From the sequence record MK310183: a stretch of DNA of 64,000 nt. One strand, written 5' to 3'. The stretch comes from Phage NC-B. The notes below the pieces were generated by a model, which was given only the letters and a program-made list of their open reading frames with translations, did no database searches and was not told the origin of the DNA. How positions within the stretch are numbered: position 1 is the first letter of the stretch; the number at the start of each line of letters is the position of its first letter. Of this stretch, positions 53,062 to 63,122 are shown piece after piece. A program made the translations under genes and the position numbers.

Positions 53062-53137
53062 TGGTGCACCCTACAGGACTCGAACCTGTAACCAACGACT
53101 TAGAAGGTCGCTGCTCTGTCCATTGAGCTAAGGGTGC
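53062..53137 (-). tRNA. tRNA-Arg (anticodon UCU)
   Basis: 76-nt cloverleaf on minus strand: acceptor GCACCCT/AGGGTGC, D-stem GCTC/GAGC, anticodon loop CTTCTAA, T-arm ACAGG-TTCGAGT-CCTGT, 3' CCA encoded. Confidence 0.8.
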
Positions 53138-58200: not shown

Positions 58201-58421
58201 TTGCGTAACCCCAGCTTACGAAGGAATCGGCCTAGCTTAGTTTCCTGCGTGATAGTGTAAGTAACAGAGTTTTCAATCAATGCTTGTTCTTGAATCGGCG
58301 ACGGATACCACTCGCCAGTAAGAATGCATTTGCATTCGATTCCGTATTTATCGGTTTTACGATAGGTCATGTTGTTGAGAATGTTACGATACATCTTAAC
58401 TTCTGTTTTCAGTTTTGGCAT
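58197..58421 (-). CDS. Hypothetical protein
   Basis: ATG; 74 aa. Confidence 0.4.
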   Translation of the reverse strand: MPKLKTEVKMYRNILNNMTYRKTDKYGIECKCILTGEWYPSPIQEQALIENSVTYTITQETKLGRFLRKLGLRK

Positions 58422-58528: not shown

Positions 58529-59431
58529 TTATGCTGCCAGTTGACGCGCTGCCATAATCTCAGCGGCTTTGCGCAATATTTCTTCTTCTTCCTGCGCAGC
58601 TTTCTCATTAGCTTTGACAGTTGAAGCATTTGAGATACGACCGCGAAGGTTAGACAATTTTTCAGTCATTTCATTGATCGCCTTTTCCATTTCATCGGCG
58701 TATGAGTCCAGAGATTCAAGCTCTTTAGTCGAGGCATTAATCAGGTAGTCATCACTGATAGATACAGTTGATGCGGTCACTTTCTTAAGGAGTGAATCAA
58801 AAGTTTTCTTAACTTTGCCTACTTCTTCACTCAATGCGATAGTGTTATCAGAAGATGCGCCATTGCGTTCATCTGCTAGTAATGCCGCTTCAATACGGAT
58901 TGCAGCCAGACGGTCAACCAGTGCATAAATATCCTGATTAAAGTTTTCGTTAACCTTCTGGTTGATCTGGTTTGCTACCGGAACGTTGTCGTTGCAACCT
59001 TTGTAGAATGCTGGGTTATCAACCTGCACGTCTTCACCTTTCGCAAAGCGTTCGAAGGAGTTAGACCAGCGGGCGCGGTTTTGTTCCATTTTGGCCTTAA
59101 CTTGTTCCGGTTTAGCATCTTCTTTAGCTTTCGCTTCACCTTCCAGATTAATCCATTTCTTCTTACCGTTCGCCCCGTCGCTGTTGTACTTGATAGGAGT
59201 GAGGAAAGAGATTGCAACTGCAATCACATCTAAATCACGGTAACGCTCAGTTAACAAGAAATCAACCGCCGCCTGCAATACATCCAGTTTCTTACCGTTG
59301 GTGCGGAAGTGCTGCAAATGGCCTAACAGGAAGTTAGAAACATCTTGTTTGATTGCCGCGTTGTTGCTACGAATGTTGTTAGCCAGTGCATTAAAGCCGG
59401 ATTCGTTAACCAGATTAAAAACTTTAGCCAT
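58529..59431 (-). CDS. Hypothetical coiled-coil protein
   Basis: ATG at 59431 with AAGGTG RBS (track start is GTG at 59440); 300 aa. Confidence 0.5.
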   Translation of the reverse strand: MAKVFNLVNESGFNALANNIRSNNAAIKQDVSNFLLGHLQHFRTNGKKLDVLQAAVDFLLTERYRDLDVIAVAISFLTPIKYNSDGANGKKKWINLEGEAKAKEDAKPEQVKAKMEQNRARWSNSFERFAKGEDVQVDNPAFYKGCNDNVPVANQINQKVNENFNQDIYALVDRLAAIRIEAALLADERNGASSDNTIALSEEVGKVKKTFDSLLKKVTASTVSISDDYLINASTKELESLDSYADEMEKAINEMTEKLSNLRGRISNASTVKANEKAAQEEEEILRKAAEIMAARQLAA

Positions 59432-60344
59432 GATATTCACCTTTCAATTGTAAACGCACTATGCGCCGCTCTCTATGAGCTATTCAAGTCACAATGACTT
59501 AACACTAATCACTAACTGCTAGTAACCAGTGGTAAATCAGGCGGTCTTATCAGGAGTTAACCTTGCCGCCTAACTTGCCGTGATGTTTCATCTGGTGGAT
59601 TCAACTAATCGCTATAAACAAAGCCGATTTGCCAGCGATGATCAATCATCACAATAAGGCAAGCGCGTCCATCTCTAATTAGCTAAATTTCTAGCCGATG
59701 GCATTACTATTTACTTTGCTTTCGCTTCGTGATACCCTTTTATATCAACTCTCTAAACCTGCTTATCGCCTACTAAGGGAAAGCATATGGTAAAGAGTCA
59801 TTGACCGCCTAACACTTTGGCGTTTGATTATCTCTCTCACGATTTACTACACTACATGTTTATGTACTCACATCGCTATTGATGTGTATCAAAACACTCA
59901 CTTAGTAAATACTCACGCTTAAACCTTATTGTTAAATAGCAATTTGCTACTCTTTAACCCCCTCCCGCCGCTCGCTATTGAGCGTTAATTCGTCGGATTT
60001 GACTACCCCGATAAACGTCTATTATTGTAGCACTTTACTAGCACCGCCGCCGCTACCCTTTAACCGTAGGCGATTAGCTTAAGCCTTGCATGTACTCAAT
60101 AACTTCATTTATCAGTGGTGTCGTTTCCAGTAAGGGATTGTAAAGCGGTTTCCTCTGATACTCTAGAGCGCCTTACATCGTTTTATCTGGCATAGCTTGC
60201 AATGGTTATTATTGCTCACCATGTTCAACCGATATAGGAAGAAGTTTAAATTGTTAAAGAGCGGTAAATCTATCGAAGTGCTTTCTCACTTCCCGCCACC
60301 GTTCGCCGTGGTTTCACGTTTCACTAGTTGCCTAGTGAGTGCTC

Positions 60345-60373
60345 ATTATGAATCATCCTGTTTAGCGTGTCAA
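60345..60373 (-). promoter_or_regulatory. Sigma70-like promoter P-A (-35 TTGACA, 17-bp spacer, -10 CATAAT)
   Basis: Read on minus strand; A-tract upstream of -35. Confidence 0.5.
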
Positions 60374-60512
60374 CCACTTTTTAAATCTTTTTCTCGTCTA
60401 TTCTTTCGAATGACCAGTTAATCGCGTATTGGATTAACAAGATTGTAAGCGGTTGCGCTTAACTTTCTGATTCGTATTTTTAAAGAGCGGTGTTTCTTAC
60501 TGCTTAGTGAAC

Positions 60513-60540
60513 ATTCTATCAGAACGTTTCACCTTGTCAA
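60513..60540 (-). promoter_or_regulatory. Sigma70-like promoter P-B (-35 TTGACA, 16-bp spacer, -10 TAGAAT)
   Basis: Read on minus strand; A-tract upstream of -35. Confidence 0.5.
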
Positions 60541-60672
60541 CTCTTTTTATCGTCTTCTTTTTATTCTCTTCCCTTATCTCGCGTGAATCTTTGCGAAAGG
60601 GCTAGACGATAAATTGTTAAAGAGCGGGGCACTAAGTGCCGGATGTTTTAGGTCATCGCTGACCATGTGCAC

Positions 60673-60700
60673 ATCTTATCATAGTGATTCGACGTGTCAA
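60673..60700 (-). promoter_or_regulatory. Sigma70-like promoter P-C (-35 TTGACA, 16-bp spacer, -10 TAAGAT)
   Basis: Read on minus strand; A-tract upstream of -35. Confidence 0.45.
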
Positions 60701-60761
60701 CAACTATTTTTCGATTAATGCATCTTGATAAACTAGCGACCATTAAGGCCGCTAACATACC

Positions 60762-60962
60762 TTAGTTCATACGTTTAAAGGTTAAATCTTTATCCGTACT
60801 TACCAGCGATAACACTGCAATAGCTTTGCCTTTATCGGCATCGGCTACCATCTCTTTTGCCTGCTGTAATGTACTACCGACTATTCTCATAATCATGTTA
60901 GTAACGTTAATGCTAGTGCAAGTGATTTGCGTGTCTTTGCTTGAGAAGGTGTAAATATTCAT
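60762..60962 (-). CDS. Hypothetical protein
   Basis: ATG at 60962 with GAGGA RBS (track start is TTG at 61001); 66 aa. Confidence 0.4.
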   Translation of the reverse strand: MNIYTFSSKDTQITCTSINVTNMIMRIVGSTLQQAKEMVADADKGKAIAVLSLVSTDKDLTFKRMN

Positions 60963-61322
60963 TGATAAATCCTCATTATGGCATGGTTGGGAGTTTATCA
61001 AGATACACTAATCAGATTCTTAAAGAGCAAGGCTAAACATCTAGCCTATCAGGAGGTAATTTACTGCGTCACGTCCTGACAAGATTCAATATACACTATC
61101 CTAAAACCGTTGCAAGCCTTTTTCTAAAATAATTTCACTTTCTTTTGTGTACAGAGGAACGCGCACACGAATAACATCAGGGGAGGAAGAAAACAAGCCC
61201 TATAATCGAAATCTAGGCACGTAGGAAGCATCCTAGCGAGCTAAACAGGGGCAAGATGTGCAATCACCTTAGAAATGAAAAAAGCGCCTCAAAAGGGCGC
61301 TTAGGGAAGTTTTACGGATTGT

Positions 61323-61649
61323 TTACGGATTAGTGCATGTGCCGTTACCGGATGATATTTCGTTCATCGACTCATCGAACAACGTCATGCTAGACCGCAT
61401 CATGTGATCAATAGTAATTTGTTTGCCTGTAGTTTCGTTAACAAGCATCGCATACTTGCCATCAACGACCTTGTTGTCGTAATCATTCAGGTCAATCAAT
61501 ACTACCTTGCTGGACTTCTTGCCAGTGTCGTAATTTTCCATAAGATAGGTGCATTGTAGGCCATCGAGATTAGCCTCATTGAACACGGCAGCATGAGATA
61601 CGGAAGAAATAGCGAACAAGGCAGCACATACAGCTAACTTAATTTTCAT
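61323..61649 (-). CDS. Secreted protein (signal peptide)
   Basis: ATG at 61649; N-terminus MKIKLAVCAALFAISSVSHA; 108 aa. Confidence 0.45.
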   Translation of the reverse strand: MKIKLAVCAALFAISSVSHAAVFNEANLDGLQCTYLMENYDTGKKSSKVVLIDLNDYDNKVVDGKYAMLVNETTGKQITIDHMMRSSMTLFDESMNEISSGNGTCTNP

Positions 61650-61741
61650 AATCCAACCCTCATAAGGAACGTGCAACAAAGAAAAACATGTCATAGATAA
61701 ATAACATGATACAGAAAGCAATAAGGCAATGCAAAAAGTAT

Positions 61742-62016: not shown

Positions 62017-62265
62017 TTAATTATCCTCGACGGTTAATAGTTCTTCTAGTGACAAACCGGATTTAACCAGCAAATCACGATATTCGTTAGCATCCATCGG
62101 ATCGAGGCCGGACAATTGAGCGATGGTCATGCGTGCACGTAATGAAGATAAGGAAGCTAAAGCACGGATAGGAATCAATACAAGGCCATATTTACCACTG
62201 ATAACTAAATCACCATGCTGAATGCACATATAGGAATTTACTACGGTTGCGAATGATTCATTCAT
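62017..62265 (-). CDS. Hypothetical protein
   Basis: ATG; ATGA coupling with upstream gene; 82 aa. Confidence 0.45.
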   Translation of the reverse strand: MNESFATVVNSYMCIQHGDLVISGKYGLVLIPIRALASLSSLRARMTIAQLSGLDPMDANEYRDLLVKSGLSLEELLTVEDN

Positions 62266-63122
62266 TGGATAGCCTCACAATTAGCAAAGTTAATAAAGGT
62301 TGTATAAACTGCTACACCGTCATTGTAGGCAGTGGTAGCGAGTACAGTTTCACTCACATCACCATAACTAACGAGATTAGTCACGAACTGTAATTTCTCT
62401 TTCTCAACCTTCTGATACAGAGAATAAGTAACCATGTCATGATCACTATCAGCACGCTTTAAATTAATAACCGACTGAATGCCTGATTTCTCACCTAACG
62501 GGGTAAGAGTGACACGCACATCTTTTACGGTTACAGAGTTAAAATGCACCTTCCAGAATGAATCATTACCATCACTGCCAACGTCACGGCAAGCCATATC
62601 AGGAGCATTCTTAAACGTGCTAACAAAGGATTGCAGACCTGTAGAAAGAGAGTCTTTTGCCTGCACATTGGTAGCGATAGCACTAACACCGATAGCTGCA
62701 ACCAGTGCATAACTTGCAAGGTTGACAGACTTCATAATCTTACTTGCAATAGAAGGCTTGCTATCTTTCTTCTTGTTCTGAATAGCTTCAACCATAGCAG
62801 ACAAGCGGGCTAATACTGCGTTAACATCGCGGCAAGATTCAGGCCAATCCTTTTGAGTCCAACTATCTAAATTAGCCTGAATGTAACAGTTGATAGCATC
62901 TTGCATATCGGTAAAACCATTCTCTTTCATCGACTCTTTATCTTCACACTGTAAGGCGTTCGCGGTGGAATCAATGATAAGGCAAGCCAGAATGACAGAG
63001 TTTTTGAAGCTGGTACGAGCTTGCTGATTATCCATCCATTGAGAAGGCACACCAACGGAAAGACCTAACGAAGAAAGTACATCATTTGCTTGATTCAAGT
63101 ATTTAATTGCTAACTTTGACAT
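62262..63122 (-). CDS. Hypothetical protein (first gene of minus-strand block)
   Basis: AAAGGA RBS, ATG; 286 aa with internal hydrophobic segment. Confidence 0.5.
   Translation of the reverse strand: MSKLAIKYLNQANDVLSSLGLSVGVPSQWMDNQQARTSFKNSVILACLIIDSTANALQCEDKESMKENGFTDMQDAINCYIQANLDSWTQKDWPESCRDVNAVLARLSAMVEAIQNKKKDSKPSIASKIMKSVNLASYALVAAIGVSAIATNVQAKDSLSTGLQSFVSTFKNAPDMACRDVGSDGNDSFWKVHFNSVTVKDVRVTLTPLGEKSGIQSVINLKRADSDHDMVTYSLYQKVEKEKLQFVTNLVSYGDVSETVLATTAYNDGVAVYTTFINFANCEAIQ

Follow-up and report, generated by a model that had tools for sequence, protein, structure and literature searches.

A conserved structured leader RNA downstream of tandem promoters and rrn-type boxA-like repeats in Phage NC-B

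The leaders of the Escherichia coli ribosomal RNA (rRNA) operons, rrn, combine A-tract upstream promoter elements and a boxB-boxA-boxC arrangement, served by NusA, NusB, NusE, NusG, SuhB and S4, with a long, untranslated and highly structured RNA downstream. Phage T7 carries three tandem strong promoters for the host RNA polymerase (RNAP) near its genome end and pointing inward (A1, A2 and A3 at 498, 626 and 750, ~125 bp apart), followed by one boxA of strict consensus (GCTCTTTAACA) at 813-823, before gene 0.3. Among the systems compared, these two are the closest in architecture to a 1.9-kb region, poor in open reading frames (ORFs), of Phage NC-B (sequence record MK310183), placed by an original prediction at 59441-61320 of a 64,000-nucleotide stretch that is referred to here as the window. 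Our reading, to which we give a probability of roughly 0.7, is that the region holds the main early transcription unit of the phage and that this unit is built like an rRNA operon, being antiterminated by Nus factors and having a large folded RNA as its main product.

T7 and the present phage belong to unrelated families, and their arrays differ in layout. The promoters in the window lie ~160 bp apart and each has its own boxA, whereas in T7 one boxA follows the whole array, and the T7 leader from A3 to gene 0.3 spans ~175 nt, compared with ~907 nt and 42 covarying helices here. The likeness to the rrn leader comprises the A-tracts, a hairpin followed by boxA, an 18-nt identity with the rrnB boxA and its spacer, and the long structured RNA downstream. 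However, no boxC was recognised in the phage unit, its product is not rRNA (no Rfam rRNA match), it ends in a protein gene, and factor binding is predicted from sequence only. In the lambda nut/N system a phage boxA on the nascent RNA makes the host RNAP processive, as is predicted here, but the lambda boxA is weaker (CGCUCUUA) and needs N on a boxB that lies 3' of boxA (PMC2724277), whereas the present unit has a full rrn consensus boxA with the hairpin 5' of it. Given the reversed hairpin order and the full-consensus boxA, a lambda-type nut/N system was rejected. No N-like protein was identified, although no systematic search for one was made, and gp124, the first protein encoded downstream, lacks an arginine-rich N terminus.

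Two further comparisons concern the RNA. In CRISPR arrays, boxA likewise heads a long non-coding transcript and prevents Rho termination (PMC7665894), but there it serves a host immune locus with a repeat-spacer RNA, whereas here a virulent phage makes a single large fold. The large RNAs GOLLD, ROOL and OLE (Kretsch et al. 2025, PMC12286853) resemble the leader RNA described below in being several hundred nucleotides long and non-coding, with many covarying helices and an association with phages. However, the leader matches none of their Rfam models in sequence or structure, which gives no sign of homology, and it differs from them in being fused 5' to a gene behind a boxA and in being confined to relatives of coliphages.

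A sequence search showed 97% identity between the 1.9-kb stretch and Escherichia phage PAS59. The stretch also matches 97 records at lower identity (~72-98% over the 1.2-kb leader part), which are phiEco32-like podoviruses (Gordonclarkvirinae: Kuravirus, Suseptimavirus) with hosts that are all Escherichia or Shigella, and by this similarity the window is assigned to a phiEco32-like podovirus of the Gordonclarkvirinae. In PAS59 the stretch is found 2.3-4.2 kb from a 275-bp terminal repeat, and minus-strand transcription in the window points inward from the genome end that bears the repeat. Among phage records, homologues of gp124 are confined to the same 97; metagenome assemblies hold further clusters with identity down to 45%, and in IMG/VR a DNA pattern scan and a gp124 scan both returned only the same five contigs. 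Comparisons were made with a close set of 17 phage-record genomes spanning the family (alignment A1, mean column identity 85%) and a distant set of eight metagenomic contigs (gp124 homologue identity 45-69%), giving 25 genomes. In the labelling of the phage records, L001 is SU7 and L005 is phage LAMP.

The three tandem minus-strand promoters of the original prediction, with their A-tracts and ~160-bp intervals, were borne out in position, spacing and clustering. P1 (60700-60673) reads TTGACA-16-TAAGAT, with an extended -10 TG and an upstream A-tract, and is conserved. P2 (60540-60513) reads TTGACA-16-TAGAAT, again with TG and an A-tract, and P3 (60373-60345) reads TTGACA-17-CATAAT with an A-tract, has a predicted start near 60338, and is aligned and conserved in the 17 close genomes. 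All three have a perfect TTGACA, a -10 match of 4-5/6 and a spacer of 16-17 bp (10-11/12 overall), and their -35 boxes are spaced by 160 and 167 bp. A perfect TTGACA with an acceptable -10 box occurs at five minus-strand sites in the window, three of them within 330 bp, while three such sites within 400 bp arose in 1 of 600 shuffled strands. Weak promoter-like matches between 57 and 64 kb are not above chance (13 found, 16.3 expected); the promoter signal therefore lies in the quality, clustering and conservation of the three sites and not in their number. A weaker sigma70-like promoter, P0 (61115-61088; TTGCAA-16-TATATT, 9/12, A/T-rich upstream), is part of a module common to SU7, PAS59, MLP3 and TH43. 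The P1-P3 array is conserved across the 17 phage-record genomes, and the eight distant ones have promoter-boxA modules as well. The array itself is already known: the SU10 paper describes three equivalent sigma70 promoters located in this same intergenic spacer in phiEco32 and SU10, and states that the host RNAP uses them early in infection in both phages (PMC4281155). This report, together with the ~125-bp spacing of A1, A2 and A3 and the strict boxA that follows them, agrees with the likeness to T7-type early arrays that had been proposed.

The repeated motif was found where it had been predicted, at 60247-60263, 60476-60489 and 60611-60627, with a variant at 61016-61029. The motif, TTAAAGAGCGG, reads CCGCTCTTTAACAATTTATC on the transcribed strand and is best read as an E. 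coli rrn-type boxA, for which GYTCTTTAANA is the strict gamma-proteobacterial consensus of Baniulyte et al. (PMC5725501). The published E. coli rrn boxA is UGCUCUUUA(ACAA) and that of lambda CGCUCUUA (PMC2724277), and the rrnB P2 transcript contains GCGGCACTGCTCTTTAACAATTTATCAGAC (PMC10803263). The consensus occurs exactly four times in the window, always on the minus strand and always in this region, compared with 0.55 expected and none in 100 shuffles. The variant boxA-0 (61018-61028, GCTCTTTAAGA) fits the consensus and lies at +54 after P0 and ~56 nt before a small ORF. boxA-1 (60615-60625) lies at ~+42 after P1 and has an extended match, GCTCTTTAACAATTTATC, of 18 consecutive nucleotides with the E. 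coli rrnB leader; this comparison used the published sequence, and an 18-nt match cannot reach significance in a BLAST search of 28 Gb. boxA-2 (60478-60488, GCTCTTTAAAA) is placed ~+19 from the predicted P2 start, and boxA-3, the last copy (60252-60262, GCTCTTTAACA), ~+77 after P3. Each copy in the window thus follows a promoter, at +19 to +77 from the predicted starts.

The same arrangement extends over the 25 genomes. In the 2.4 kb upstream of the gp124 homologue, the consensus was found 93 times in sense and never in antisense orientation, with 2-5 copies per genome, at a median of 73 nt from the predicted start of the nearest upstream promoter. The eight distant contigs have 2-3 consensus copies each, most of them preceded by a TTGAC[AG] promoter (none matched in L023). 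The core GCTCTTTAA is invariant in every promoter-boxA module of the close and distant sets, while the flanks and the number and arrangement of the modules vary. From boxA-3 to the gp124 ATG there are 825-836 nt in the phage-record genomes (865 in LAMP) and 869-935 nt in the distant ones. The original prediction had suggested an electrophoretic mobility shift assay for proteins that bind the motif. A DNA site for a regulator of that kind is unlikely, as the motif is not palindromic, lies downstream of the predicted starts and is strand-specific (93:0); it is better read as a signal on the nascent RNA, an rrn-type boxA for NusB/S10.

Three of the four copies in the window have a hairpin just 5' of boxA, in the boxB-then-boxA order of rrn and not in the lambda order. 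Directly 5' of boxA-0, in a boxB-like position, lies the hairpin AGGCTAGATGTTTAGCCT (61030-61047, minus strand), of which the loop differs in relatives (GATTCTT in PAS59, GACTTTT in TH43) while the stem arms are kept. The P1 transcript would begin with two hairpins (60628-60664, minus strand), GGUCAGCGAUGACC at 60664-60651 and GGCACUUAGUGCC at 60640-60628, the latter directly 5' of boxA-1; compensatory variants of the CAGCGATG hairpin in relatives include GGTCA/TGACC, AGTCA/TGACT and ATTCA/TGAAT. Two covarying hairpins also stand at the 5' end of the leader (60311-60275, minus strand), one at 60311-60296 and one at 60292-60275 with the purine-rich loop GAGAAAG, 12 nt 5' of boxA-3. Compensatory change affects 4 of the 10 pairs of these helices (2 and 3), and distant relatives keep a hairpin with a GUAGAAA loop at the site 5' of boxA-3. 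Just downstream of boxA-2, a palindromic hairpin (TAAGCGCAACCGCTTA, 60446-60461, both strands) has no T-run and so is probably not a terminator.

Downstream of P3, the transcript would enter an untranslated leader of ~907 nt (60338-59432, minus strand), which is marked as structured by its fold z-score, its covariation and its excess of G·U pairs. Taken from the P3 start to a point shortly beyond the ATG, the minus-strand sequence (919 nt) has a minimum free energy of -288.6 kcal/mol, compared with -235 ± 6.6 kcal/mol for its dinucleotide shuffles (z = -8.17). RNAalifold on alignment A1 gave 244 pairs in 42 helices. In this structure 98.9% of the cells hold standard pairs, compared with 35-45% when the 3' partner was slid by 1-3 columns; 74 pairs and 283 cells are changed on both sides (7-11 and 9-23, respectively, in the slid controls), and the covariation score is 0.263 (at most 0.066 in the slid controls). 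None of 500 column shuffles reached the observed pairing and covariation values. The structure contains 411 G·U cells and 17 A·C cells, and the opposite strand would pair only 89% of the cells; the 411:17 ratio places the fold on the transcript strand and points to selection at the level of RNA. A structured non-coding RNA in the ORF-free stretch is therefore strongly supported by strand-specific compensatory change above controls, as is the option of a long leader or non-coding RNA among those originally proposed.

The RNA is organised in several domains on the minus strand. Domain I (60250-59953) is multibranched and comprises helices 5-18. It is followed by an invariant hairpin 19 (59952-59934, GCAAAUUGC), by domain II (59932-59651), which is closed by an invariant 10-bp helix (ACAAUAAGGU/GCCUUAUUGU), and by domain III (59650-59582), after which five 3' hairpins extend down to 59453; domain III and these hairpins together comprise helices 33-42. 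The Shine-Dalgarno (SD) sequence and ATG of gp124 directly follow these hairpins. A boxA-like GCTATTTAACAA inside the leader (59929-59940, minus strand) is invariant but fails the boxA consensus at the critical C; it is structural, forming part of hairpin 19 and of the helix that closes domain II. Many unpaired blocks of the leader are also invariant in A1, and the transcript contains the invariant G-rich runs GGGUAGCGGCGG and GCGGCGGG. The leader is 0.77 identical in nucleotides to that of phiEco32, and the gp124 gene 0.76. The two copies of CCGCCTAAC listed in the original prediction are real but incidental: on the transcript they are the GUUAGGCGG strands of two hairpin stems (59572-59538; A1 columns 580-596), and they differ in relatives. 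When the leader was scanned for additional covarying helices or pseudoknots, no more than three candidates emerged, all short and weak. RNAalifold proposed a helix that pairs the boxA flank (60269-60259) with the gp124 SD (59445-59435), which was rejected as evidence; it is invariant, its duplex energy does not beat that of shuffles, and it is lost in distant relatives.

The fold can be followed beyond the close set. A covariance model of the 3' domain (R1), built from the 17 close genomes only and covering 59650-59483 of the window, finds this domain at the expected place in all eight distant contigs (E 1e-13 to 4e-34). Compensatory change was seen in 35 of 46 pairs of the R1 alignment, which is model-fitted and in which one of the seven rows is a chance-level second match in the window. 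When 9 close and 8 distant leaders were aligned globally by sequence only, which under-reports pairs, there were still 87 consensus pairs, 97% paired and 60 covarying (36-40% paired in slid controls). The leader RNA thus predates the Kuravirus group. Hairpins at its periphery are present in some relatives and absent from others, as is usual for large RNAs. In LAMP, a segment of domain II has been inserted or replaced ~620-700 nt upstream of the gp124 start (A1 columns 549-632), adding ~33 nucleotides and leaving the helix-25 region impossible to align; elements at the periphery of the RNA can evidently be exchanged. The distant contigs mostly have ~3 kb of gene-free DNA upstream of the gp124 homologue, with one or two small called genes in L022 and L035. 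In L023, L025, L027, L034, L036 and L037 the stretch without a called gene measures 2.7-3.4 kb and exceeds the leader and promoter modules by roughly 1.5-2 kb, which could represent further RNA, small genes or genome termini.

At gathering score, Rfam 15 gave no match in the whole window except a tRNA at 53065-53137, and at E ≤ 10 it gave four chance-level matches of 15 bits or less in 59300-61400; the families covered include introns, RNase P, 6S, tmRNA, GOLLD, ROOL, OLE, HEARO, riboswitches and ribosomal protein leaders. The covariance-model search suggested by the original prediction has therefore returned no known family, while R1 recovers the 3' domain in distant relatives. The ORF-poor stretch of ~900 bp was confirmed, as the transcribed strand has no ORF reaching 30 aa in 59432-60340; its lower boundary had been set at 59441, which is 9 nt too high, the gp124 ATG being at 59431. 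Short conserved ORFs, which would have offered another account of the region, were looked for and none is shared by the 17 leaders: only TTG/GTG frames of 20-54 aa and one 89-aa GTG frame, confined to TH43, were seen, and none of the small frames is common to all 17 genomes. Substitutions in the leader track helix pairing and not codon structure. Its base composition is G-rich and C-poor (222 G, 157 C).

Computation shows that the promoters are conserved and of high quality, that the motif is identical with the host boxA and biased in strand and position, that the RNA has a conserved fold, and that terminators are present. From these results we propose that, early in infection, host sigma70 RNAP would start at three strong UP-element-type promoters and a weaker one upstream, sited 2-4 kb from the genome end and firing inward, as is suggested by their consensus match and conservation and by the phiEco32 and SU10 literature. 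Within ~20-80 nt, and mostly after a hairpin, the nascent transcript would present an rrn-type boxA, which, judging by its identity with the host signal and its orientation, position and conservation, would recruit NusB-S10 together with NusA, NusG and SuhB to give a fast, Rho-resistant RNAP; this step is drawn from knowledge of rrn and lambda anti-termination (PMC2724277, PMC5725501, PMC8632103). So protected, RNAP would be able to cross ~907 ribosome-free nucleotides, and the Nus complex may help the leader RNA to fold as with rRNA, the complexes assembled on rrn being chaperones of RNA folding (PMC8632103). The leader is computed from covariation to adopt its conserved multi-domain structure of ~42 helices, and transcription would continue into gp124 and mostly stop at a conserved intrinsic terminator. 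A near-consensus sigma70 promoter near the genome end (63195-63168, minus strand; TTGACA-16-TATAGT, 11/12) has no boxA and has ORFs directly downstream (62262-63122 onward), which fits a need for boxA where RNAP crosses untranslated RNA; for CRISPR arrays, which are also untranslated, protection from Rho by boxA has been demonstrated (Stringer et al. 2020, PMC7665894).

Several observations weigh against this rRNA-operon-like model. The transcription start sites are predicted and the evidence is computational throughout; the family covers a narrow phylogenetic range, with 97 phage records that all have Escherichia or Shigella as hosts, plus 45 protein clusters; and the leader RNA has no match in Rfam 15 to any family of known function. 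No GU-rich, boxC-like element was recognised and boxA-2 has no 5' hairpin; in rrn, boxB and boxC can be dispensed with (PMC2724277). The helix predicted to join the boxA flank over a long distance to the gp124 SD region does not vary and does not outscore shuffled sequence. gp124 offers no functional clue, with no Pfam, PADLOC-type or PDB sequence match, and the lack of a processing site or terminator between the leader RNA and gp124 favours a role in cis. The leader, being G-rich, C-poor and heavily paired, may also be resistant to Rho without help, an argument already made for rRNA (PMC5725501), in which case the importance of boxA may lie more in speed or folding than in anti-termination.

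What the leader RNA does once made is a separate matter. We hypothesize, at slightly less than even odds, that the RNA is a product in its own right, made early and in abundance and acting, once folded, as a scaffold or decoy in host takeover, possibly with gp124; this view follows from its size and complexity, its invariant single-stranded blocks, its modular recombination and the heavy investment in promoters. More tentatively, the phage may have copied the whole logic of the rRNA operon to mass-produce, in the first minutes of infection, a new class of large trans-acting RNA (~0.9 kb, ~42 helices). Such an RNA might serve as a scaffold, a decoy or a self-assembling particle, possibly with gp124, in host takeover or in blunting defences, a suggestion that we hold just as tentatively. 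If true, it would fit the reported unusual defence resistance of the Gordonclarkvirinae; according to the BASEL authors, these phages are abundant but poorly studied and strongly resist the defence systems that were tested (PMC11990801).

Instead, the folded leader may be only a cis-acting 5' untranslated region that shields the early mRNA from 5'-end-dependent decay and controls when or how strongly gp124 is translated, which we regard as possible without expecting it. Consistent with this, the leader always lies directly upstream of gp124 at a near-constant distance, and the two form one unit between terminators with no terminator or obvious processing site separating them. However, ~42 helices and ~900 nt far exceed any bacterial or phage cis-regulator known to us, the many invariant single-stranded blocks suggest tertiary or trans contacts, and the SD-sequestering helix is unsupported. 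In SU7, moreover, the gp124 gene is 94.6% identical to that of the window and the leader only 76.6%. This mosaic indicates a recombination junction at or near the boundary between leader and gene, so that the two recombine as separate modules, against an exclusively cis-acting leader. Roles other than an RNA product or a cis-acting leader are, taken together, unlikely.

Among these, the boxA copies might act mainly as a sponge that titrates NusB, S10 and SuhB away from host rrn and so contributes to host shut-off. Every relative has 2-5 consensus copies behind its strongest promoters, boxA-1 mimics 18 nt of the host rrn leader, and Nus factor levels are autoregulated and limiting (PMC5725501). 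We nevertheless consider this improbable, since T7 manages with one boxA, one copy per promoter is more simply explained by the need for each transcript to carry a boxA near its 5' end, and no direct evidence for titration was found. A transcription-activated replication origin, at which the transcript would serve for priming or would form an R-loop, much like ColE1 RNA II or the T7 primary origin, is less probable still. Strong promoters running into a non-coding stretch and the invariant G-rich runs of the transcript would suit it. However, the GC-skew profile carries no origin signature specific to the region, no iterons or AT-rich unwinding element were seen, the selection is clearly on RNA pairing, and these phages presumably encode their own replication machinery; the replication hub of the original prediction thus gained no support, GC skew being uninformative and the 411:17 ratio of G·U to A·C pointing to the RNA. 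Finally, a reading of the motif as an operator on the DNA for a phage or host protein, with small protein genes hidden in the ORF-free stretch, is hardly tenable, for although the motif recurs near promoters and some records annotate 5-9 'hypothetical proteins' in the stretch, the motif is non-palindromic, lies downstream of the predicted starts rather than over the promoters and is strand-specific (93:0), none of the small frames is common to all 17 genomes, and substitutions follow pairing instead of codons.

Neither the boxA reading nor the structured leader seems to have been described before: in the searchable literature no paper was found that links boxA with phiEco32 or Kuravirus, nor one on the leader RNA, with some of the searches being too broad. 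If the rRNA-operon-like organisation holds, it would extend control by boxA and Nus factors to a virulent, non-lambdoid phage family, for which no earlier report was found, and in a form that is unusually explicit, with each promoter having a consensus boxA of its own. It would also offer a natural system for asking whether Nus complexes mainly block Rho or chaperone the folding of long RNAs. Few non-coding RNAs are large and elaborately folded, and the majority of these (GOLLD, ROOL, OLE) occur in organisms that are hard to handle. The phages that carry this leader RNA are available in public collections (phiEco32, SU10, BASEL Bas86-94), which makes its function, partners and three-dimensional structure directly testable.

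The unit ends with the gp124 homologue (58529-59431, minus strand; 300 aa, phrog_13018), which has an SD AAGGUG at ~59442-59437 and its ATG at 59431. The protein is predicted to be helical with a long C-terminal coiled coil and has no recognisable relatives; its AlphaFold model is confident (pLDDT, the predicted local distance difference test score, 82.8) and gave no Foldseek match below E=1. A strong intrinsic terminator with a 12-bp stem and a T-run follows at 58511-58484 (minus strand), and phiEco32, L025 and L022 have retained it with stems that differ in sequence (counterparts at L003 1542-1569, L025 5944-5969 and L022 5973-6000). On the upstream side, a 7-bp GC-rich stem followed by TTTTTCATTTC (61302-61282, minus strand) forms the terminator of the early operon nearer the genome end, and the SU7 annotation has a terminator at the corresponding position. 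With the unit bracketed in this way, the strongest early promoters feed the leader and gp124, and they may serve mainly these two. The next early genes begin at 58421 and run downward, beyond the gp124 terminator, and may be transcribed by readthrough or from a promoter of their own.

Between P0 and P1 lies a small early ORF of 66 aa (60762-60962, minus strand), a homologue of SU7_114, which varies across the family and is missing from the annotation of phiEco32; it has no Pfam or PHROG match. In phiEco32, the gap of almost 2 kb between phi32_124 and phi32_125 carries no annotation. In the public records examined, 1.3 kb of the present region is either blank or filled with spurious 'hypothetical proteins', of which the MZ234017/NC_070982 record family places 5-9 inside the non-coding leader, and the leader annotations need correcting. 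The label 'terminase', given in several records and in PHROGs (phrog_13168) to a 132-aa early protein (61323-61721, minus strand), is doubtful. Elsewhere in the window, a tRNA-Arg gene (anticodon TCT; 53062-53137, minus strand) is the sole Rfam or ARAGORN match.

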